In this document: positions 3,219 through 21,486 of the stretch, piece by piece
How positions within the stretch are numbered: position 1 is the first letter of the stretch
How the letters are laid out: each line of letters opens with the position of its first letter
The notes under the pieces: model-generated
Told to the model about the DNA's origin: nothing
What the model saw: only the letters and a program-made list of their open reading frames with translations
Database searches by the model: none
Position numbers and translations under genes: made by a program
From: Patescibacteria group bacterium
Lineage (GTDB): Bacteria > Patescibacteriota > Patescibacteriia > Patescibacteriales > UBA12465
Direction: 5' to 3'
DNA length: 64,000 nt
Assembly (NCBI GenBank): GCA_041651355.1
Contig: JBAZJK010000001.1
Span: 101,883 to 165,882 of the forward strand

Positions 3219-5321
3219 TTATTCGAAATGGATTTCATTTTCCCATTGTCCTAGTTTTTCTTTCAGGAGAGGATAATCTTTTAATTCCGGATCTTCTTTA
3301 ACTATTTTTTCGGCTTCATCTTTAGCTTTCTTGATCAGCTCATAATCGAATAGGGTGGCAATTTTTATTTCCGGCCAGCCGCTTTGGTTGGCGCCATAGA
3401 TATCGCCCGCCCCCCTCAACTTGAGATCGATCTTAGCGAGGCTCAAGCCATCGCTGTATTTGGTGAGGGCTTCTAGACGCCTAAGACTTTTATCACTCAT
3501 TTCTTGTTCGTTGCTAGGGAAAAGGAGACAATATGATTGATGCGGCCCGCGTCCGACTCGGCCGCGGAATTGATGGAGCTGGGCTAAACCGAAGCGCTCC
3601 GCTCCTTCGATTATCATGACACTGGCATTTGGTACGTCGACACCCACTTCGATAACTGAAGTAGCGACCAGTATTTTAGTCTTCTTATCCAAGAAGTCTT
3701 GCATTACCTTGTCTTTCTCATCACTTTTGAGGCGTCCGTGCAGCAGGCCGACAGGGAGGTCAGGAAAAATTTCTTTATCCAGGCGTTCATGTTCAGCTTT
3801 GACTGATTTATAGCCGCTTTTATCGGATTCGTCGATCAGAGGACAGATGACAAATATCTGCCGGCCTTCAGAGATTTGCCGTCTGATAAATTCATAGCTT
3901 TTTATCCTTTCTTTTTCGCTAATTATTTTGGTAATTACCGTTTTTCTGCCAGCCGGCATTTGCTTGATTAAAGATAGGTCCAGATCCCCGTAGATCGCTA
4001 AAGCTAAAGAGCGGGGAATCGGGGTGGCGGTCATTGATAAGAAGTGAGGAATGAGATTTTTAGTGCCGGAAGAAACTATCTTATGCCGCTGGACTACGCC
4101 GAAACGATGCTGTTCATCGACTACGATCAGGCCTAATTGCCGGAAATCTAAACGATCTTGGATTAAGGCATGAGTGCCGATTATTATATCGGCATTGTCT
4201 AGGATTTCTTTGGTAATAGCAGTAGTTTTAGCCTGGCCTTTCAGGGATGGGTTTATATTGTCAGCCTGGTAGTTGATATTTTTTTGCCCCCTAGTTAATA
4301 GTCCGATTTTCACGTTAAAGCCGCCGAGGAGCCGGTTAAGGGAATTGAAATGTTGGCTAGCCAGGATTTCTGTGGGCGCCATAAGCACCCCCTGGTAGGC
4401 ATTTAAAGCGGTATTGAATAAAGCTAGGGCGGCTACTAGGGTTTTGCCACTTCCGACATCGCCTTCCAGCAGACGCGACATAGCTTGGCTTTTTTCAAGG
4501 TCATTGAGGATTTCCCAGGCGGCGCGCCTTTGGTCGTCGGTCAGTTTGAAGGGCAGGCTGGCCACAAATTTTTTAGTCGCCGTTTCTTGGAATTTGATAA
4601 GCGGCGCTTGTTTGGTCCGAAGCTGGTTTTTGGTCGATTCAGCTTTCAACTGGCGTAGGAATAAATCACCGAAATTAAGGCGCTGGGAAGCTGCCTGGGC
4701 TGCAGTCGGATCTTTGGGAAAATGCGCTTGAGCCAGGGCTTCGCCCAAGGTTAATAATTTTAGATTTTTTCTGACTCTTTCTGGTAGCCAGTCAGGAATG
4801 TACTTAGTTAAAGGCAAGGCTTGCTTGATTAGGAATCTTATTTGTTTTTGGCTGAGCCCGGCGCTCAGATGGTAGCGGGGAATGAGGCCTTTAGTATGTA
4901 TCAGGTCAGCAGAGTTTATTTTTTCGTATATCGGTGACACTAAGCTTAATTGGCCATAATTATCACTAACCTTTCCTGCTAAGGAAACCTGATCGCCTGC
5001 CTTAAGATTGCGAGCCAGGAAGGGTTGGTTAAACCAGATAACTTTAATGGTTTCGCTCTCATCGCTGACTAGAGCTTCGGTTAGGTATTTTCTTTGTCTG
5101 GCGCTCCGCTTATTTTGAATTAATTCAATGGTACCGATAATTGTGACAGTTTCCCCGGCTTTTAAATCTTTGATCAGCTTAGTCTCTCTAAGATCGTCAT
5201 AGCGGAAAGGCACATAAAAAAGCAGGTCTTGGGCTTGAGCCAGACCTAGCTTTTTTAAGTATTTAGCCGTAGTTTTACCAACTCGTGATAAGTCGGAAAT
5301 AGGGGAATTGAGCTGAAGCAT
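3219..5321 (-). CDS. recG: ATP-dependent DNA helicase RecG
   Basis: 700 aa with an N-terminal wedge/OB region, Walker A GDVGSGKT, the VVDEQHRFG motif and helicase C motifs (QLHQFRGRVGRG). Confidence 0.95.
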   Translation of the reverse strand: MLQLNSPISDLSRVGKTTAKYLKKLGLAQAQDLLFYVPFRYDDLRETKLIKDLKAGETVTIIGTIELIQNKRSARQRKYLTEALVSDESETIKVIWFNQPFLARNLKAGDQVSLAGKVSDNYGQLSLVSPIYEKINSADLIHTKGLIPRYHLSAGLSQKQIRFLIKQALPLTKYIPDWLPERVRKNLKLLTLGEALAQAHFPKDPTAAQAASQRLNFGDLFLRQLKAESTKNQLRTKQAPLIKFQETATKKFVASLPFKLTDDQRRAAWEILNDLEKSQAMSRLLEGDVGSGKTLVAALALFNTALNAYQGVLMAPTEILASQHFNSLNRLLGGFNVKIGLLTRGQKNINYQADNINPSLKGQAKTTAITKEILDNADIIIGTHALIQDRLDFRQLGLIVVDEQHRFGVVQRHKIVSSGTKNLIPHFLSMTATPIPRSLALAIYGDLDLSLIKQMPAGRKTVITKIISEKERIKSYEFIRRQISEGRQIFVICPLIDESDKSGYKSVKAEHERLDKEIFPDLPVGLLHGRLKSDEKDKVMQDFLDKKTKILVATSVIEVGVDVPNASVMIIEGAERFGLAQLHQFRGRVGRGPHQSYCLLFPSNEQEMSDKSLRRLEALTKYSDGLSLAKIDLKLRGAGDIYGANQSGWPEIKIATLFDYELIKKAKDEAEKIVKEDPELKDYPLLKEKLGQWENEIHFE

Positions 5322-5328
5322 AAAATTG

Positions 5329-5400
5329 TGCTTTCGGCAGGAATCGAACCTGCATTACAAGATCCGCAATCTTGCGTCCTATCCGTTGAACGACGAAAGC
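5329..5400 (-). tRNA. tRNA-Arg (anticodon GCG)
   Basis: 72-nt cloverleaf folded by hand. The acceptor is GCTTTCG/CGAAAGC, the anticodon arm is CAAGA-TTGCGGA-TCTTG and the T arm is GCAGG-TTCGATT-CCTGC. The discriminator is A and CCA is not encoded. Confidence 0.85.
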
Positions 5401-5420
5401 CTATCTAAAGCCTAATCTTA

Positions 5421-5948
5421 TTATAATTTAAATAGTTTCGTCAACTGTTCGGATAGGGGGACATCGGTTCGCTCTAAATCCTCGTCTAAGTATCTGAGTA
5501 AGAAGTTCCTGACCAGGATTGGGTTCATATGACGCAAGGGAATCGATAGACGGGGGCGGAAAGAATTTTTAAATTCAAAATAAAGGTTTTTGACGCTTTG
5601 CTTGGGCTTATATATGACGGCGAAGTGCTTGAAGCTGTCATAATCATAGAACTTGTTCCCGATTTTTATCCCTTCACTCTCCAGATATATATTAACCATC
5701 AGGGCTGGGCGACCATCATTGATTATGATTATTATAGAGGAGATTATTAGGATAAGGGCAAATAGGAAATTAGAGTTAGCCCCTAAAAATGTTAGCTTCC
5801 AGCCGGAAAAACTGAAAAAAGAGAAGAAGAGGCAGAGGAATAGGAATATGCCGGCGATTATATACCAACGGCGGCCTCTTTCAGGGCGTCGATATTCCGG
5901 CACCGGCCAGACTAATTTTTGGGGCATATTTTGCTTATCAATAGCCAT
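5421..5948 (-). CDS. hypothetical membrane protein
   Basis: 175-aa ORF with two central TM helices. An extended -10 (TGgTATAAT) lies upstream on the minus strand. Confidence 0.6.
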   Translation of the reverse strand: MAIDKQNMPQKLVWPVPEYRRPERGRRWYIIAGIFLFLCLFFSFFSFSGWKLTFLGANSNFLFALILIISSIIIIINDGRPALMVNIYLESEGIKIGNKFYDYDSFKHFAVIYKPKQSVKNLYFEFKNSFRPRLSIPLRHMNPILVRNFLLRYLDEDLERTDVPLSEQLTKLFKL

Positions 5949-5957
5949 ATTTTCAAA

Positions 5958-5986
5958 TTGACATTATTGCTTTTATTTTATATAGT
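5958..5986 (+). promoter_or_regulatory. sigma70-type promoter for tRNA-Ser(GCT)
   Basis: TTGACA (5958-5963), a 17-nt spacer, then TATAGT (5981-5986), about 30 nt upstream of the tRNA. Confidence 0.5.
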
Positions 5987-5988
5987 GA

Positions 5989-7698
5989 TTATACCACAAA
6001 AATCAGACGAGATAAATTGGAGAGGTGCCGGAGCGGTCGAACGGGGCACCCTGCTAAGGTGTTATCCTTGAAAGAGGATCGAGGGTTCGAATCCCTCCCT
6101 CTCCGCAGAACGGGACGAAGCGAGTCTAAAAACTCATTTCGTCCTTTTTTTATCGGCATTTTTGAAAGTTCGAACGTAGCAATTTTGGCGTTTAGGAGTT
6201 CTCGATTTTTTTCTATCGGCAATAGCCATTTGAACGCTAATATTTCAAGTTTTTTGTCTTCAAGAAAAAAGTTCGAACCGAGCGAAGACAATATCTCTCT
6301 TTTCTTCTCGGATTCGCCATTCACGAATTGATTAAGGCCATGACAGGCCAGTTCGAAGGTTTGTTTAGTCAGCTTTAAAACCTTTTCTTCTCTGATCTCG
6401 TCATAGCCGTCTAAATCGTCCAATTTGGCCATTTCGCGGGTCAGTTCGTTCTTAGCTTCCAAATATTCATCGTCGCTTAACAAGTCCCGACATTTCATTT
6501 TAGTGAGGCTTTTTAGTTCCTCTTTGAGCTTTTCCATAGACTTGCCCGTATTGGCCTTTATAGCCTCGTCTTTGGCCGTTTCTTCCTGTTTCAGCTCATC
6601 TATAATCTCCAGCCCCAAGTCCAAAAAGGCGGGGTTAAGCTCATATTTTTGCAGTTCGGCGATTATTTGTTTGTCCATAGCTTCACGGTCGACGGAAGAC
6701 TGTCCGCAAGAATAATCGCGACGTCTGTGGGCGCAATAGTAATAGGCATAAACCTTGTTTTGACCGGTTTGTTTATTAAATTTTGTCTTGAAATCGGCCG
6801 TTATCAAACAGCCGCACTCTTTGCATTTTATCAATCCCCGATAAGGGAAATCTTTTTCTTGCCGGCGCGGTTTTCCGTCTCGGCCCATTATGGTTTGAAT
6901 TTGGTCGTATTGGGAAATTGTTATTAAACGTTTGTGCTTGCCTTTGGTTTCCTGTCCGCCGTAATTGATTATTCCGGCGTAAAACGGATTGGTAAAAATT
7001 CTGTAAATCGCACTACGCGACAATTCTTTGCCGCCGAGACTGCGAATTTTTCTTGTCTTGTATCCCCATTCGCCGTTCATCTTTTCCAAAATTTCGGGAA
7101 CACTATAATTGCCGGTCAACATCAAATCGAAAGCCCGGCGCAATAACGGGAAACGTTCCGGGTCAGGGACGATAATGCTGAAATTACTGTTTTCGTCTTG
7201 TCTGTTTAGATAACCTTCGGGCGCTTTGTTCGGTAGCCAACCCATGGAAAACTTTTTTTCCAAACCGCGGCGGACATCTTTTCCAAGTTTCGACGAAAAA
7301 TATTGTGATTGGCTAAGCGCCAATTGCAACATCATTATGCCTTCGGGGGAATTGTCGAAATTATAGGAACCGAATTTCAAATCTTTGATGACGCCCGTGC
7401 GAACCAAGTATGAAATCGTCGAAGCGTCTATCTCGTTGCGGCTTAATCTGTCCGGATGCCAGGCAATAATTCCTTCCGCTTCGCCCTTTCGGATGCGCTT
7501 TATCATCTCGGCAAAAACGGGGCGATTGTACGGCGAAAAAGCGCTGTGCTTTTCTTCCAAAATTTCCACTATTTCCAAACCGTTGAAGAATTCCCGAACT
7601 TTGTCCTTTTGGCTTTCAATGGACAAGGCCTGACGTTCTTCGCCCTCGGTGGATTTTCGGACATAAGCGAAATATTTAATTTTAGTCGCCGTTGTCAT
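5989..7698 (-). CDS. large serine recombinase (integrase). The 3' end runs antisense through tRNA-Ser(GCT).
   Basis: Resolvase-type N-terminus YVRKSTEGEERQALSIESQ (catalytic Ser region), a recombinase domain, a zinc ribbon CKECGC...CAHRRRDYSC and a coiled-coil. The last roughly 55 aa are encoded opposite the tRNA, its terminator and its promoter. Confidence 0.9.
   Translation of the reverse strand: MTTATKIKYFAYVRKSTEGEERQALSIESQKDKVREFFNGLEIVEILEEKHSAFSPYNRPVFAEMIKRIRKGEAEGIIAWHPDRLSRNEIDASTISYLVRTGVIKDLKFGSYNFDNSPEGIMMLQLALSQSQYFSSKLGKDVRRGLEKKFSMGWLPNKAPEGYLNRQDENSNFSIIVPDPERFPLLRRAFDLMLTGNYSVPEILEKMNGEWGYKTRKIRSLGGKELSRSAIYRIFTNPFYAGIINYGGQETKGKHKRLITISQYDQIQTIMGRDGKPRRQEKDFPYRGLIKCKECGCLITADFKTKFNKQTGQNKVYAYYYCAHRRRDYSCGQSSVDREAMDKQIIAELQKYELNPAFLDLGLEIIDELKQEETAKDEAIKANTGKSMEKLKEELKSLTKMKCRDLLSDDEYLEAKNELTREMAKLDDLDGYDEIREEKVLKLTKQTFELACHGLNQFVNGESEKKREILSSLGSNFFLEDKKLEILAFKWLLPIEKNRELLNAKIATFELSKMPIKKGRNEFLDSLRPVLRRGRDSNPRSSFKDNTLAGCPVRPLRHLSNLSRLIFVV
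6019..6105 (+). tRNA. tRNA-Ser (anticodon GCT)
   Basis: 87 nt with acceptor GGAGAGG/CCTCTCC, anticodon loop CTGCTAA, a long variable arm, T loop GGTTCGAATCC and discriminator G. Confidence 0.9.
6113..6151 (+). terminator. rho-independent terminator of tRNA-Ser(GCT)
   Basis: GGACGAA...TTCGTCC stem with inner gagt/actc pairing, followed by T7. Confidence 0.6.
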
Positions 7699-7912
7699 AT
7701 TTGTTTCTTTTTACCAAATCATAATTCCAAAAAATATCGGTCAAATCATCCCGGATTTCTTTCAAGACTCTCGCCTTATCTTCCCGGTCCAAGTGTTCGT
7801 CGGGAAGTTCAAAATCCAGCCGGATCTCGTTGAGAACCTCGGCCATATTTAAAAGAGTCTTGTCCTCCAAAACTTTCTTTTGTTCTTCGGTTGTTGTTTT
7901 AGTTTTTGGCAT
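7682..7912 (-). CDS. small acidic hypothetical protein, a possible recombination directionality factor (speculative)
   Basis: 76-aa ORF that overlaps the recombinase start by 17 nt, implying translational coupling. Confidence 0.45.
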   Translation of the reverse strand: MPKTKTTTEEQKKVLEDKTLLNMAEVLNEIRLDFELPDEHLDREDKARVLKEIRDDLTDIFWNYDLVKRNKYDNGD

Positions 7913-7932
7913 AACAAAAAGGGGCGGTCCTG

Positions 7933-8037
7933 GAGACCCAACTAAATATCGCCAAAGGCAATACTCGTCGGCAGAACCGTCCCTTTTTGGGGGCGAGTAT
8001 AAAAAATCCCTTGGCGGATGTTATTTAGTTGGGTCTC
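7933..8037. repeat. 105-nt imperfect hairpin (long inverted repeat)
   Basis: The outer arms GAGACCCAACTAAATA (7933-7948) and TATTTAGTTGGGTCTC (8022-8037) are perfectly complementary. Inner pairings continue: atcgccaaagg/cccttggcggat, tactcg/cgagta and cgtccc/ggggcg. Confidence 0.6.
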
Positions 8038-8068
8038 AATGTTAATGATACCATAGTCGGGCGATTTT

Positions 8069-8254
8069 TCAAGCCCTAAAATAAAGCTCTTTAAGTCGCT
8101 TCTTTTCGGTCGCGCTTATCGGGATATAAGTCGCTTTGACCAAAATGACAAGCTTGAGGCATTGCTCGAAGGTTTCTTCGTCGCTTATTTCTTCTTTAAA
8201 CGTTTCTCTATATAAATTTTTAAACTTTTCAACGTGGCTCGGTTTGATGTTCAT
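8069..8254 (-). CDS. hypothetical small protein
   Basis: 61-aa ORF directly downstream of Rep on the same strand. Confidence 0.4.
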   Translation of the reverse strand: MNIKPSHVEKFKNLYRETFKEEISDEETFEQCLKLVILVKATYIPISATEKKRLKELYFRA

Positions 8255-8267
8255 AATCGAACTGCGT

Positions 8268-15848: not shown

Positions 15849-16925
15849 ATGGATAAGAAAAAACAAAAAACATTAAAAGGTGTCTCGCTTTTTTCTAGCG
15901 CTGGAATAGGTGAGGCTTTTTTTGATAAAATTGGTATCAAAATTGTTGTGGCAAATGAACTCATTGCCGAAAGGGCAAAATTGTATTCGAGTTTGTACAA
16001 AGACTCAAATATGATTATTGGCGATATTACTGATAAAAAAATTTTTAATAAAATTGTTAAGGAATCTGGTAAAATAGACTTTTTAATAGCAACTCCTCCT
16101 TGTCAGGGTGTTAGTATTGCTGGCAAAAACCGAACCATGAAGCAAATGTTAAATGATGAACGAAATCATTTAATTTTTAAAACTATTGATTTAATAAATA
16201 TTAAAAAACCAAAATTTGTTCTTATAGAAAATGTGCCAAACTTTTTGAAACTCAAATTGCCTTATGAAGGAAAATTATGCACACTTTTGGAAATTCTTTC
16301 TGCCCTTTATGGATCAGAATATAAAATTGAGGCAAAAGTTTTAGATGCATCAGAATTTGGAGTTCCTCAAAAAAGAAATAGGGCTTTAATTAAAATGTAT
16401 AAAAAGGGGCTGATATGGAAATGGCCGGCTAAATCAAAAGTAGTGTCCGTTAAAGACGCTATAGCTTTTTTACCTAGTCTTAATCCTGGACAAAAATCTG
16501 ACATACCTTGGCATTTTGCGAGAAGGCACTCGCCTCAACATATTTTATGCATGAAAAATACTCCGACCGGTTGTTCTGCTTTTCAGAATAAAATTCATTT
16601 CCCTAAAAAAAGTAGCGGGGAGCGAGTTAAAGGCTATATGACAACTTATAGACGTATAAAATGGAATGAGCCGGCACCAACGATTACAATGAGAAATGAC
16701 GCCATTAGTTCCCAATTAAACGTCCATCCTGGAAGAAAATTAAAAGACGGTACCTATTCAGACCCTCGTGTTCTTACTCCCTTAGAGCTAATGCTTTTAA
16801 GCTCTTTTCCGGTAAAAGATAAAAAAATTCCAGAAAATACCCCAGAAATATTAATTAGAAAATGTATTGGAGAAGGTGTTCCGCCGCTATTACTAAAAAA
16901 AGTGTTATTAGGAATTGAAATATGA
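15849..16925 (+). CDS. DNA (cytosine-5)-methyltransferase
   Basis: Motif I LFSSAGIGE, motif IV PPCQGVS, motif VI LIENVPNF, motif VIII QKRNR and motif X GEGVPP. Confidence 0.9.
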   Translation: MDKKKQKTLKGVSLFSSAGIGEAFFDKIGIKIVVANELIAERAKLYSSLYKDSNMIIGDITDKKIFNKIVKESGKIDFLIATPPCQGVSIAGKNRTMKQMLNDERNHLIFKTIDLINIKKPKFVLIENVPNFLKLKLPYEGKLCTLLEILSALYGSEYKIEAKVLDASEFGVPQKRNRALIKMYKKGLIWKWPAKSKVVSVKDAIAFLPSLNPGQKSDIPWHFARRHSPQHILCMKNTPTGCSAFQNKIHFPKKSSGERVKGYMTTYRRIKWNEPAPTITMRNDAISSQLNVHPGRKLKDGTYSDPRVLTPLELMLLSSFPVKDKKIPENTPEILIRKCIGEGVPPLLLKKVLLGIEI

Positions 16926-18376: not shown

Positions 18377-19039
18377 ATGATTATATTGAGCAACGAGGAT
18401 AACATGAAACTAATGTCTAGATATGAAGATAATCATTTTGATTTGGCTATTGTTGATCCGCCATATGGAATATTAAACAAAACAAAAAGAGGCGGAGACA
18501 ATAAATTCAATATGGCCGAGTATAGTAAGTGGGATGTGAAACCTAATGATAAATATTTTAACGAACTTTTTAGAGTGTCAAAAAATCAGATTATTTGGGG
18601 CGGCAATTATTTTGGTCAAATTTGGACAAGATGTAAATATAATAGGTGCTTTATAATTTGGGATAAAAATCAGCCTGAAAGCTTAAATAATTTTTCAATG
18701 GCTGAAATGGCTTGGACATCATTAGACCTTCCGTCTAAAATATTTCGTTATAGTGTTCGAAAAAATAGAAACAAGATTCACCCGACTCAAAAGCCTATTG
18801 AGTTATATGAATGGATTTTAAAGCTGTTTGCTAAAAAAGGAGATAAAATTTTAGACACGCATCTAGGCAGTGGGACCATTGCCGTGGCGTGCGATAAAAT
18901 GGGGTTTGACCTCACTGCTTGTGAGATAAGTAAGAGTTATTTTGAAAAAGCTATCAATAATATTAAAGAGCATAACCCTAATATAAAAATTGAAAAAATC
19001 AAGAAGATAGATTCAAACATCACCATAATGAGCAGGTAA
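18377..19039 (+). CDS. beta-class N6-adenine/N4-cytosine DNA methyltransferase
   Basis: Motif IV IVDPPYG sits near the N-terminus and the AdoMet motif DTHLGSGT near the C-terminus, which is the beta-class order. 220 aa. Confidence 0.85.
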   Translation: MIILSNEDNMKLMSRYEDNHFDLAIVDPPYGILNKTKRGGDNKFNMAEYSKWDVKPNDKYFNELFRVSKNQIIWGGNYFGQIWTRCKYNRCFIIWDKNQPESLNNFSMAEMAWTSLDLPSKIFRYSVRKNRNKIHPTQKPIELYEWILKLFAKKGDKILDTHLGSGTIAVACDKMGFDLTACEISKSYFEKAINNIKEHNPNIKIEKIKKIDSNITIMSR

Positions 19040-19088: not shown

Positions 19089-20138
19089 ATGAAGATTATA
19101 AAAAAAGCCGAAAACGGGGTAGAATATTTATTCGGTTTATTAAAACAAAAATCCCAGACCATCACAAGAGCGGTGTTATGGAAAATTCCACATAAATCGG
19201 ATGTCAATGATTTGCGATTAAAGATTGGTAGATATAAAAAAATTGGTTTTGAGCCGGAAACTCTAGAATGTAGCTCGCCGAAAAGCGAGCTTACTTTAGA
19301 CAATGAAGAATTCAAAGAACTCCTTGTTTTTTTATCTGAAAATTATCAGCCTTTCTGCGATGGTGCTAAAAAATATATACCAATTGAAAATGGTTTTGAC
19401 CCAAAAGATTTAGAACATATTAAAGCTATATTTAAAAACCCCGATAAAGAAAAACTTCTCAATTTTATCGCAGAAAATAATATATTGCCTGAAGATTTAA
19501 TACATGGTTTACAACATCAGACAAGAAAAAAAGCCATCGCAGAATTTGAAAAAATGTTAAGTGATGATTTGAGTGAAAAAGTGTGGCAAGATTGGTTTAA
19601 AGATAATAGCTGGGTTTTGGGGACTGATTTTGTTAAAATTTTAGATGAGCGGCATATTGACACGAGTAATATCTCAGATTATTTAATGCAAGCCTATGAT
19701 GGCTTTTTGGATATTATAGAAATAAAAAAGCCTGAAACAAATCTAAAATTTTGGTCTACTTCAAAAGACCATGATAATTATATTCCGTCATCTGACCTCA
19801 CCAAAGCTATTACTCAAGCGACTAAATATATATACGAGGTAGAGCGAGAATCTAATAGCCTAAAATTTACTGAAAGAGTAGGAATAAAGACGATTAAACC
19901 GAGATGTGTTTTAATTTTTGGTAGGTCTAGTGATTGGGATAATGAACAAAAGGAGGCGTATAGGATTTTAAACTCTAATTATCATAATTTAACGATTTTG
20001 ACTTATGACCATGTTTTAGACAGGGCAAAAAGAATATTAGATTATAAACCGGATGCGCCTGAGAATCCTCAAATTATTGGGGAATTACCAGAAGAATTAT
20101 TTGAAGAGGAAGTAGATGCAAGAAATATTCCATTTTAA
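19089..20138 (+). CDS. Shedu-like (SduA/DUF4263-type) PD-(D/E)xK nuclease candidate
   Basis: EKVWQDWFKDNSWVLGTDF, then DGFLDIIEIKKP (D..E.K core), then CVLIFGRS and LTILTYDHVL. This matches the remembered DUF4263 layout. 349 aa. Confidence 0.55.
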   Translation: MKIIKKAENGVEYLFGLLKQKSQTITRAVLWKIPHKSDVNDLRLKIGRYKKIGFEPETLECSSPKSELTLDNEEFKELLVFLSENYQPFCDGAKKYIPIENGFDPKDLEHIKAIFKNPDKEKLLNFIAENNILPEDLIHGLQHQTRKKAIAEFEKMLSDDLSEKVWQDWFKDNSWVLGTDFVKILDERHIDTSNISDYLMQAYDGFLDIIEIKKPETNLKFWSTSKDHDNYIPSSDLTKAITQATKYIYEVERESNSLKFTERVGIKTIKPRCVLIFGRSSDWDNEQKEAYRILNSNYHNLTILTYDHVLDRAKRILDYKPDAPENPQIIGELPEELFEEEVDARNIPF

Positions 20139-20140
20139 AT

Positions 20141-20611
20141 ATGAATGACATCCTATTTTCTAAAAATTTGATTAAAGGAAAAATTGCTCAGATTATTTTT
20201 GAACAAATGTTTCGAGAGCAAGGGGAATATACCGTTATTCCATTCGGTTATGAAAATATCCTTCCCGAAATATTTCCACAGCGCAATAATTTTGAAGGAG
20301 CGCAAAGAGCAATCGATAATATCAGGCATGCACCGGACTATACTTTAATCTCGGCAAAAAAGGAAAAGGTCTATTTAGTGGAGGTTAAATACAGAAAAGA
20401 GTTAAATATCGATGAAATAAAGACTATCGCCGCCAAGCAAATTCAAAGATGGAATCCATCATGTATTTTTGTAGCAACTCAAAATGGCTTTTATTTCGAT
20501 TTATGCTCCTCTATTCTGAAAAAGGACACAATTCAAAAATTATCAGATAAAATGATCTCTAAGGAAATACAAGATAAATACAAAATTTTATTGTGTGAAT
20601 TTGAGCGCTAG
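20141..20611 (+). CDS. small PD-(D/E)xK-like protein, hypothetical
   Basis: 156 aa containing FGYE...PDYTLIS...VYLVEVKYRK, a D-x(n)-E-x-K pattern. Its start lies 3 nt after the Shedu-like stop. Confidence 0.4.
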   Translation: MNDILFSKNLIKGKIAQIIFEQMFREQGEYTVIPFGYENILPEIFPQRNNFEGAQRAIDNIRHAPDYTLISAKKEKVYLVEVKYRKELNIDEIKTIAAKQIQRWNPSCIFVATQNGFYFDLCSSILKKDTIQKLSDKMISKEIQDKYKILLCEFER

Positions 20612-20765: not shown

Positions 20766-21434
20766 ATGATTAACCAAAGTTACGGTTTTGAAAAACCTAA
20801 TAAGATAGAGGTTGAAAAAGAACCGGCAATTAAACTCATTGGTTCCAGTCAGGCGCCAGAAAAATATAAAAAGAATCCTTTTTATAATAGTTATCATTGG
20901 GGTATGGCTGACTGGGAAGATAAAGAGTTGTACCTACCTGATAATTCCGACGAGGCGATATCTTTTTCTATTGCCTCGCATGAATTAGGCCATTTGGTAA
21001 ATAAAGGCAGAATACAGCCAGACCGAGAAAATTTTCAGAGTACTTATCAAGAAGAACTAAGAGCCTGGGGGATCGGATGGAGTTATCTAAAACAGCATCT
21101 CACTGACTATTATAATGATCCTAAATCCATTGAAGATTTAAAGGGTATTGAAGAAAAAGTTAAGGACAAAATGATGGATATTACCCTTTTGACTGAACCA
21201 TTCTATAAAAATCCAGAAAAAAAGGGCGTTGAGCAGCAAAGAGACTCTTTTTTACAAACTGAGCAAGGTAAACATATTAAAGCAGAAATTGATAGTCTGA
21301 AAGGATTTATTGAAGAAACGCTTGCTAGTTTAGGTAAAGAATCATTTTTGAAGAAAACCGATTGGAGCCGTTTCTCTAATGTTATTAAAAAAGTCTTAAT
21401 TGATATAGAAAAAGATAATCAGGCTAATGATTAG
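20766..21434 (+). CDS. HExxH zinc-metallopeptidase-like protein
   Basis: 222 aa with the motif SIASHELGHLV. It lies between repeat copies A and B. Confidence 0.5.
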   Translation: MINQSYGFEKPNKIEVEKEPAIKLIGSSQAPEKYKKNPFYNSYHWGMADWEDKELYLPDNSDEAISFSIASHELGHLVNKGRIQPDRENFQSTYQEELRAWGIGWSYLKQHLTDYYNDPKSIEDLKGIEEKVKDKMMDITLLTEPFYKNPEKKGVEQQRDSFLQTEQGKHIKAEIDSLKGFIEETLASLGKESFLKKTDWSRFSNVIKKVLIDIEKDNQAND

Positions 21435-21457
21435 TAAGGACTGTTTTTAATAAAACC

Positions 21458-21486
21458 GTTCCAACTGCGTCCCACCCCCTCCGCGT
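21458..21486 (+). repeat. degenerate tRNA-Ser(TGA) 3'-end-like repeat (copy B)
   Basis: gttccaa+ctgcg+tcccaccccctccgcgt compared with the tRNA-Ser(TGA) 3' end gttcgaa+tcccaccctctccgcgt. 16 of the last 17 nt are identical, and the 5-nt insertion sits in the same position as in copy A. Confidence 0.55.

Follow-up and report, generated by a model that had tools for sequence, protein, structure and literature searches.

A single-gene Shedu nuclease and a closely packed, very probably unrelated PD-(D/E)xK-like protein in a defence cargo region of a Patescibacteria genome

We analysed a stretch of 64,000 nucleotides (nt) from a Patescibacteria group bacterium (contig JBAZJK010000001.1, positions 101,883 to 165,882; hereafter the window, meaning this whole stretch), with regard to two adjacent genes on its forward strand, the gene sduA, encoding a Shedu nuclease of 349 amino acids (aa), and a gene encoding a PD-(D/E)xK nuclease-like protein of 156 aa. 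Judged from sequence comparison, the 156-aa gene is in all likelihood an unrelated neighbour of sduA and not the gene of a Shedu subunit, with SduA acting as a single-gene system at the end of a restriction-modification (R-M) operon in a defence cargo region. Both open reading frames (ORFs) lie where an earlier note on this DNA had placed them. That note proposed that the two genes form either a two-gene variant of Shedu or a Shedu gene followed by an independent mini-nuclease, and it gave the spacer between them as 3 nt; the spacer is actually 2 nt, the sduA stop codon TAA (20136-20138) being followed by AT and then by the start codon ATG.

The evidence comes firstly from linkage tests in two directions. 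In the forward direction, the SduA of the window was used in a tblastn search of 80 loci that encode the 156-aa family in different species of the Candidate Phyla Radiation (CPR), each with flanks of 10 kb, and SduA was present within 10 kb in none of the 80 (best E=0.83, the positive control of the window itself giving 689 bits). In the reverse direction, 80 metagenomic SduA loci with 48-94% identity were searched by tblastn and by a hidden Markov model (HMM) built from the 156-aa family, and again none of the 80 holds a family member. Moreover, the genes next downstream of SduA on the same strand are of many kinds, grouped in small clusters (Abi_C, Fic, PDDEXK_1, R.EcoO109I, MFS and unknowns), with no conserved downstream partner among the 80 loci.

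Secondly, close relatives show the 156-aa gene in a slot of variable cargo. Copies of the gene with 77-96% identity sit 1-33 nt behind at least eight differing cargos, among them a HinP1I R-M system with three unknown genes (locus L081), a HpaII R-M system with Vsr and the same three genes as in L081 (L173), two C5 cytosine DNA methyltransferase (M.C5) genes with HNH and GmrSD_N (L166), a BpuJI-like R-M system with an SMC/AAA_15 ATPase (L085), Mrr with NYN and DUF4145 (L171), SLFN-AlbA with RNase H (L169), and UDG (L084). At the nucleotide level, the homology of the relatives to the window at this gene begins 4-17 nt upstream of the start codon and ends just past the stop. In the map of all these loci, a left border ending with genes for a 90-aa, a 265-aa and a LexA-like protein is conserved in six loci (the window, L085, L086, L087, L166 and L173), the 156-aa gene forms the right border in four of the six (the window, L085, L166 and L173), and the cargo between the borders varies. 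SduA is present in three of the six, and only in the window is it followed by the 156-aa gene. Locus L086 has the same cassette as the window, with a nucleotide identity of 76-77% in the left border, 93-95% in the R-M genes and their promoter region, 87% in sduA and 75% in the sduA tail; it has no counterpart of the 156-aa gene, and what comes after sduA there is a gene homologous to the one located in L003 downstream of the 156-aa gene. Because the 156-aa gene of the relatives adjoins differing cargos and the L086 cassette occurs without it, the 2-nt spacing is taken as the product of cassette exchange and not as the sign of a partnership. Cargo cassettes would be swapped by recombination right up to the 156-aa start codon, with the 2-nt spacing as a by-product.

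Several points weigh against the reading of the two genes as unrelated. The 2-nt gap, the shared strand, the lack of a predicted terminator between the genes and their matching low GC content (0.319 for sduA and 0.325 for the 156-aa gene) are traits of true operon partners, and there may be a functional coupling of the two genes that is specific to this strain. Co-transcription of the two from a candidate promoter at 15785-15813 is probable, and it is plausible because no convincing terminator is predicted between them. In addition, the fold matches behind the function of the 156-aa protein, described below, are weak (TM 0.35-0.5, E~1e-3), the function being read from fold and context alone, and the boundaries of the mobile element in which the genes seem to lie depend on a 12/14 match and on one homology of 39 nt.

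The same operon traits are what favours a two-gene Shedu, where the 156-aa protein would be an obligate or accessory SduA subunit, e.g., a second nuclease or a regulator, analogous to KELShedu, and two-component Shedu systems such as KELAB do exist. In KELShedu (KELA plus KELB), KELA, whose gene is upstream of that of the nuclease, is a protein of 110 aa that binds double-stranded DNA (dsDNA) and is needed for defence (PMC12577705); this architecture differs from that of the window. With no co-occurrence in either direction, with L086 having the same cassette minus the 156-aa gene, and with the latter lying equally close (1-27 nt) behind at least eight unrelated genes, such a two-gene system is highly improbable, and the KELShedu analogy itself is ruled out by gene order, fold and the absent co-occurrence. 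Because the 156-aa family is unlinked to DUF4263 elsewhere, the two-gene idea fails on the point by which the earlier note had asked that it be judged, and its alternative of an independent mini-nuclease is the one that the lack of linkage supports. It is noted that a packing within 2 nt does not amount to a partnership, which is a caution for assignments by adjacency in compact CPR genomes where cassettes are swapped up to the next start codon.

The 349-aa protein is, by its sequence, a bona fide, canonical single-protein Shedu nuclease, an assignment that is already known; the identical protein is annotated by NCBI as 'Shedu immune nuclease family protein'. As the earlier note had read from the layout of the protein, it belongs to the DUF4263/Shedu family. 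It matches the Pfam profile PF14082 (SduA_C) with E=3.7e-27 and 95.9 bits, for a cut-off of 27 bits, with aa 161-309 on profile positions 2-158 of 159, and the PADLOC profile PDLC00385 with E=1.7e-141, with aa 14-318 on positions 8-315 of 319. With phmmer it finds the solved Shedu structures 8TI8 of B. cereus (E=2.8e-12) and 8PS4 of E. coli (E=4.7e-9). The protein is laid out as an N-terminal beta-domain (aa ~1-70), a helical linker, the DUF4263/PD-(D/E)xK domain (aa 161-309) and a disordered C-terminal tail, and its AlphaFold2 (AF2) model, with a predicted local distance difference test score (pLDDT) of 71, consists of a small N-terminal beta-domain, the helical linker and the nuclease domain. 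A Foldseek search of this model against the PDB gives significant matches to 8TI8 and 8TI9 only (E=1.8e-10 to 3e-7).

The catalytic residues of the B. cereus enzyme are E204/D249/E264/K266/Q295 (Gu et al., bioRxiv 10.1101/2023.08.10.552793). Mapping of these published positions through the phmmer alignment to 8TI8 places motifs I-IV at E163, D197, E211, K213 and Q243 of SduA, and all five residues are invariant across 42 SduA homologues. The peptides quoted in the earlier note (WQDWFKDNSWVLG, DGFLDIIEIKKP, IFGRS, TILTYDHVL, PDYTLIS and VYLVEVKYRK) are all found in the translations of the two genes. Its D..EIK core for the 349-aa protein holds as to EIK, which is motif III (E211-I-K213), and not as to the aspartate, since the aspartate of motif II is D197 in NISDYLM and does not lie within DGFLD. 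Going by its B. cereus and E. coli homologues, SduA would be an autoinhibited homotetramer, with its PD-(D/E)xK sites presumably switched on by features of foreign DNA such as free ends, and it would back up the neighbouring R-M system. That relatives with 62-75% identity are present in Flavobacteriaceae, Omnitrophota, Ignavibacteria and several CPR lineages argues for horizontal spread of the gene.

Upstream of sduA lie the genes for M.C5, a Type II restriction endonuclease (REase) and a small N4/N6 DNA methyltransferase (MTase), the REase gene overlapping the M.C5 gene by 4 nt. The four same-strand genes appear to form an operon-like cassette, which lies between the gene of a LexA-like repressor and the 156-aa gene. 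The candidate promoter lies in the intergenic region 15705-15848, which is 93% identical in L086, the adjacent LexA-like gene being 77% identical there; promoter-like sites are overall no more frequent in the window than in shuffled sequence, and hence the site is a candidate only. The recurrent context of SduA is the 3' end of R-M operons, and such embedding is already published, with 602 of 5,499 Shedu genes lying within R-M systems (Gu et al., bioRxiv 10.1101/2023.08.10.552793). Among 56 SduA loci with a close same-strand upstream gene, R-M genes stand upstream in at least 26. In 17 of the 56, SduA follows a ResIII-type helicase of 745-784 aa that in turn follows a Type III Mod, the small N4/N6 MTase of the cluster found in the window is upstream in 5, and HsdS or HsdR is upstream in two loci each.

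From this context it could be argued that SduA serves as the restriction half of a pair whose other half is the small N4/N6 MTase upstream of it, making a second R-M-like pair and not a free-standing Shedu of the abortive or end-sensing kind. The recurrence of the same MTase cluster in the 5 loci, the position of SduA behind a Type III Mod and a Res-like helicase matched in its helicase region only in the 17 loci, and the proposal that MTase-fused Shedu proteins might be equivalents of Type II R-M systems (Gu et al., bioRxiv 10.1101/2023.08.10.552793) speak in favour of such a pair. However, the cassette already holds a complete REase, the identity to L086 is 87% for sduA but 93-95% for the three R-M genes, i.e., they are not strictly co-inherited, and SduA is also found behind HTH (helix-turn-helix) genes, HsdS/HsdR, peptidases and unknowns. 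We thus regard the pairing as unlikely and keep to SduA as a free-standing Shedu nuclease at the operon end.

Note also the arrangement in the loci with the Res-like helicase (among them L091, L098, L092, L103, L108-L110, L118, L127, L128 and L148), where SduA lies 1-4 nt behind the helicase gene, and a Type III Mod together with a small unannotated ORF of ~68 aa lies upstream of the helicase. The Res-like proteins match Type III Res profiles in the helicase region only, and in these loci the nuclease part of a split Type III-like system might be SduA.

A feature of SduA that apparently is undescribed for Shedu is its C-terminal tail, PDAPENPQIIGELPEELFEEEVDARNIPF, which resembles the C-terminal tip of SSB, the protein that binds single-stranded DNA. 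The hexapeptide DDDIPF is the C-terminal tip of the E. coli SSB and the docking site of SSB-interacting proteins (PMC5872125). No mention of SSB or of a C-terminal tail was found in the Shedu preprints, nor a description in papers that combine 'Shedu' and 'SSB'. Of the 120 nearest SduA homologue clusters, 89 have -PF as their last two residues, and in 75 the ending is [DENS][ILMV]PF; a disordered acidic tail with [D/N/E]-[I/L]-P-F at its C-terminus is a trait of about 75% of the subfamily. In these tails, position -3 is Ile in 75%, position -4 is D/N/E in 89% and position -5 is E/D in 66%, and the linker ahead of the tip has 9-33 residues of variable, acidic sequence (31% D+E, 5% K+R). Distant members from soil, with ~50% identity, end in DDDIPF, and the tail also stands at the C-termini of the homologues P0122-P0240 and of the SduA ORFs in loci L086-L165; 19 of 20 tail-less variants are genuine truncations. 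As background, only 4 of 1289 ORFs have an ending of the tip type, one of them being a genuine CPR SSB that ends in IDDLPF (E=5e-39 to solved SSBs). Residues 322-349 of SduA have pLDDT 34-41 in the AF2 model, i.e., predicted disorder, and the tail is not docked anywhere in this monomer model, by which autoinhibition in cis is neither supported nor excluded.

That the acidic linker and the [D/N/E]-[I/L]-P-F tip act as a functional mimic of the SSB tip, either docking to SSB-interacting enzymes or folding back in autoinhibition, is possible rather than probable, and we put it forward tentatively. If it is true, a tetrameric Shedu would display four SSB-like docking peptides, and the tail could recruit the nuclease to enzymes acting on single-stranded DNA (ssDNA) or DNA ends (RecQ, RecJ, ExoI, PriA, chi, or SSB-hijacking phage proteins). 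It could also be that the tail folds back as a DNA-mimicking autoinhibitory element that is displaced upon infection. The activation or targeting of Shedu would then be tied to the SSB interactome by a host-independent motif, which would fit a nuclease that moves between phyla. The tail offers a testable hypothesis on what, beyond the N-terminal domain, sets the targeting of Shedu and its discrimination between self and non-self. As a side observation, a 469-aa protein encoded at 5049-6458 of locus L035, with weak coiled-coil/TPR-like matches and not identified, ends in ...SEDLPF and may be another non-SSB protein with the SSB-tip motif.

We now turn to the 156-aa protein. The D-x(n)-EVK pattern to which the earlier note had drawn attention is borne out, since P65, D66, E81 and K83 do not vary among 29 members of the family with identities down to 46%, and the predicted fold matches PD-(D/E)xK enzymes exclusively; K12, G13, W104, Q144 and Y147 are likewise invariant. 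In the AF2 model (pLDDT 84, predicted TM score (pTM) 0.80), P65-D66 lies just ahead of the strand 67-71, and E81 and K83 lie within the strand 77-84. The Foldseek matches of this model in PDB and BFVD are Hjc, RecU/PrfA, the cap-snatching PA-N and the DREN domain of SPARDA, which have a probability of 0.9-1.0 but are distant, with TM 0.35-0.5 and E~1e-3 to 1e-5. No member of the family, the 156-aa protein included, has an above-threshold match in Pfam, PADLOC, PHROGs or NCBIfam, and a sequence and profile search of the PDB gave nothing relevant. Below threshold, PF08722 (TnsA-like_N) is matched by 26 of the 29 family members, at 18.5 bits for the 156-aa protein itself with a cut-off of 26.5, and TIGR00252 (YraN/UPF0102) gives 14 bits with a cut-off of 69. 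A word-based search finds 512 homologue clusters; with an exhaustive profile search the number is 790 at E<=1e-3 and 261 at E<=1e-10. Nearly all of these proteins stand alone and have 150-170 aa, most coming from metagenome-assembled genomes of Patescibacteria, and the exhaustive search showed no domain fusion hinting at a function. As far as sequence and model indicate, the protein has the PD-(D/E)xK fold and is a member of an unnamed Patescibacteria family. It would probably be a Mg2+-dependent DNA endonuclease acting via D66/E81/K83.

The genes adjoining the family at large are highly variable, no cluster among the neighbours within four genes on either side occurring in more than 8 of 77 loci. 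About one-fifth of 132 adjoining neighbours, from 69 CPR loci, carry defence or mobile-element domains, the rest being housekeeping or unknown. The Pfam-type domains include SMC_N/AAA_15/AAA_21, Fic, ResIII/DEAD, D12 and N6_N4 MTases and GIY-YIG, and the PADLOC types include mad3, AriA/GajA/PtuA-type ATPases, OLD and SoFic. An SMC/AAA_15 ATPase was considered as the true partner of the 156-aa protein, from L085 and from a recurrent upstream gene of 750-900 aa, and was rejected, the large proteins being heterogeneous: they comprise HsdR, Type III-like Res, AAA_13, a DinG-like helicase, GmrSD, SMC-like ATPases and a P-type ATPase. With large upstream genes of so many kinds, the family lacks a fixed partner, and it would sit behind many different defence and mobile-element operons of CPR bacteria. 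The best reading would be a nuclease that stands alone and moves together with defence and mobile DNA, and the family could represent a single-gene defence nuclease of CPR bacteria that has gone unrecognised. At the tail of Patescibacteria defence operons of various kinds, this uncharacterised family of stand-alone PD-(D/E)xK proteins is met repeatedly.

The main rival to this is that the 156-aa protein is a housekeeping DNA-repair enzyme of CPR bacteria, such as a Holliday-junction resolvase or a YraN-like nuclease, which merely flanks a hotspot for the insertion of defence and mobile elements. The wide occurrence of the family in Patescibacteria as a stand-alone protein of ~155 aa, the presence of the Hjc and RecU resolvases among its best fold matches, and housekeeping neighbours such as FtsX, a P-type ATPase and a Mur ligase speak in favour of such an enzyme. 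However, synteny is not conserved, and the biggest neighbour cluster, in 8 of the 77 loci, is that of mobile-element recombinases. Moreover, two copies of the family (L030 and L059) lie ~220 kb apart on one Adlerbacteria contig, CAVVLG010000003.1, which argues against a single-copy housekeeping role. In the window, the GC content of the gene, 0.325, is that of the foreign block and not that of the host (0.42-0.44), both flanks of the gene vary among the copies of 77-96% identity, and the gene probably lies inside an integrated element; to this is added the ~20% share of defence and mobile-element proteins among the adjoining neighbours. A housekeeping role is therefore improbable in our estimate, and a nuclease that travels with defence and mobile DNA is preferred.

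A low-GC block within flanks of 0.42-0.44 is made up of the cassette genes, sduA included (GC content 0.32-0.33), the 156-aa gene (0.325) and the gene after it (0.344). To its left lies a backbone of inovirus-like order, which, besides the genes in Table 1, holds genes for a 91-aa protein, a 605-aa protein of g3p size and small putative coat proteins. The genes at 5989-7698 and 8268-9017 were considered as host core genes syntenic with L003 and rejected as such, since the Pfam matches identify a large serine recombinase and a G2P-type Rep; because of this, the view that the 156-aa gene belongs to a chromosomal flank is weakened and a location in or next to a mobile element is favoured. The LexA-like gene, whose cluster C05 is common to the window, L085, L086, L087 and L166, is part of the conserved left border of the cargo slot; in L173, database gene calls place a 207-aa LexA-like gene at the equivalent position, where the ORF caller used here gave an overlapping ORF. 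The 222-aa HExxH protein, in the same block as the LexA-like repressor and with no homologue in the related loci, may be a protease of the ImmA type.

These features suggest, with moderate confidence, an inovirus-like element of ~15.4 kb (about 6.1-21.5 kb of the window) integrated at tRNA-Ser, which would carry the three R-M genes, sduA, the 156-aa gene and the 222-aa HExxH gene. For the putative attR core, CCCACCCCCTCCGC, which matches the tRNA 3' end, ~0.2 chance matches are expected in the window, and the 39 nt at 21446-21484 are 90% identical to positions 314-352 of L003, a recombinase-proximal att-like region running into the tRNA-downstream flank. Around the element no long direct repeats turned up, only this short core that resembles the tRNA 3' end. 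The genome would thus apparently provide a filamentous-phage-like integrated element with R-M and Shedu cargo in a CPR bacterium.

Three further observations on the loci are recorded. Firstly, a 97-aa ORF at 9562-9855, within the element, has a borderline match to the N-terminal domain of ArdC, an anti-restriction factor (E=2e-4, 22.0 bits for a cut-off of 22.6). Secondly, at 5989-6106 the 3' end of the recombinase ORF, in its longest call (569 aa, minus strand), covers the whole tRNA-Ser(GCT), the homologue in L003 having 471 aa; the recombinase may end within the tRNA or att sequence, or the ORF may be too long as called. Thirdly, the block of three genes directly upstream of the 156-aa gene in L081 (7301-9996) and in L173 (5270-7948), encoding three proteins, one of them Lactamase_B-like (~370 aa) and the others of 219-229 aa and 294 aa, is conserved in two different backgrounds and may be an uncharacterised defence module.

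Table 1. Features of the window around sduA and the 156-aa gene (coordinates count from the first nucleotide of the window)
Feature	Coordinates	Strand	Evidence or remark
Inovirus-like backbone	5989..13343	-	Pfam matches; module common to L166 and L173
Large serine recombinase	5989-7698	-	PF00239, PF07508, PF13408
tRNA-Ser(GCT), putative integration site (attL side)	6019..6106	+	ARAGORN; abuts serine-recombinase gene
G2P-type rolling-circle Rep	8268-9017	-	PF23343 E=1.2e-20
Zot/pI-like ATPase	9917-10771	-	PF05707 E=4e-9
LexA-like repressor (HTH and S24 peptidase), divergent from the operon	15081..15704	-	PF00717 E=8e-28; PF01726 E=6e-15
Candidate operon promoter, best sigma-70-like match TTTACA-17-TATAAT	15785..15813	+	11/12 consensus positions; 36 nt upstream of M.C5 gene
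C5 cytosine DNA methyltransferase (M.C5), first operon gene	15849..16925	+	PF00145 E=4e-55; PADLOC MTase_II PDLC03384 E=5e-137
Type II restriction endonuclease, 482 aa	16922..18370	+	PADLOC REase_II PDLC03533 E=6e-176; no Pfam match
Small N4/N6 DNA methyltransferase, 220 aa, directly upstream of sduA	18377..19039	+	PF01555 E=3.9e-20; PADLOC MTase_II PDLC03386 E=4.5e-85
sduA, single-gene Shedu nuclease, 349 aa	19089..20138	+	PADLOC, Pfam and structure matches
SSB-tip-like C-terminal tail of SduA, aa 320-349	20046..20135	+	acidic variable disordered linker, ends N-I-P-F-COOH
Stand-alone PD-(D/E)xK nuclease-like protein, 156 aa	20141..20611	+	motif, AF2 fold, family
222-aa protein with HExxH motif (SHELGH), last low-GC gene of the block	20766..21434	+	PF06114 (IrrE/ImmA-like) E=0.064, below cut-off; GC content 0.344
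Putative attR core	21471..21484	+	12/14 match to tRNA-Ser 3' end, where GC content returns to host level

Finally, we compare the two proteins with known systems. The 156-aa family shares with Hjc, RecU/PrfA, the TnsA N-terminal domain (PF08722) and YraN/UPF0102 the size, the alpha-beta-beta-beta-alpha-beta core and the D...ExK signature, but it has its own conserved N-terminal helix (K12-G13) and C-terminal helix (Q144/Y147) and is mainly restricted to Patescibacteria. With KELShedu the window has in common a DUF4263 nuclease gene with a small same-strand gene 2-3 bp away. By contrast, the small gene of the window is downstream of the nuclease gene, encodes a PD-(D/E)xK fold and is found together with SduA in no other genome, and the gene upstream of sduA encodes an N4/N6 MTase and not a small dsDNA-binding partner.

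SduA resembles the B. cereus (8TI8/8TI9) and E. coli (8PS4) enzymes in its full-length match to the PADLOC SduA profile and in having all four PD-(D/E)xK motifs, and the B. cereus enzyme also in having an N-terminal domain and a helical linker, its predicted fold matching 8TI8; like Shedu systems in general, it is a single gene with no conserved partner in a defence island. Its nuclease domain is, however, only ~24% identical to that of B. cereus SduA, and its N-terminal domain is a different, small and beta-rich one. The B. cereus and E. coli proteins are without the disordered acidic tail of ~30 aa ending in IPF, the alignments reaching ~5-7 residues from their C-termini. As with the R-M-embedded Shedu of Gu et al., the sduA of the window is the last gene of an M-R-M operon, but the association looks much stronger in the subfamily of this SduA than the 11% for Shedu overall. 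Compared with the SSB tip (...D-D-D-I-P-F-COOH), the SduA motif likewise stands at the extreme C-terminus, with invariant P-F, with I/L at -3 and with acidic residues or Asn at -4 and -5, and is likewise preceded by a variable, disordered, acidic linker, Shedu being reported to be a homotetramer like SSB; the difference is that in SduA the tip is attached to a nuclease and not to an OB-fold ssDNA-binding domain.

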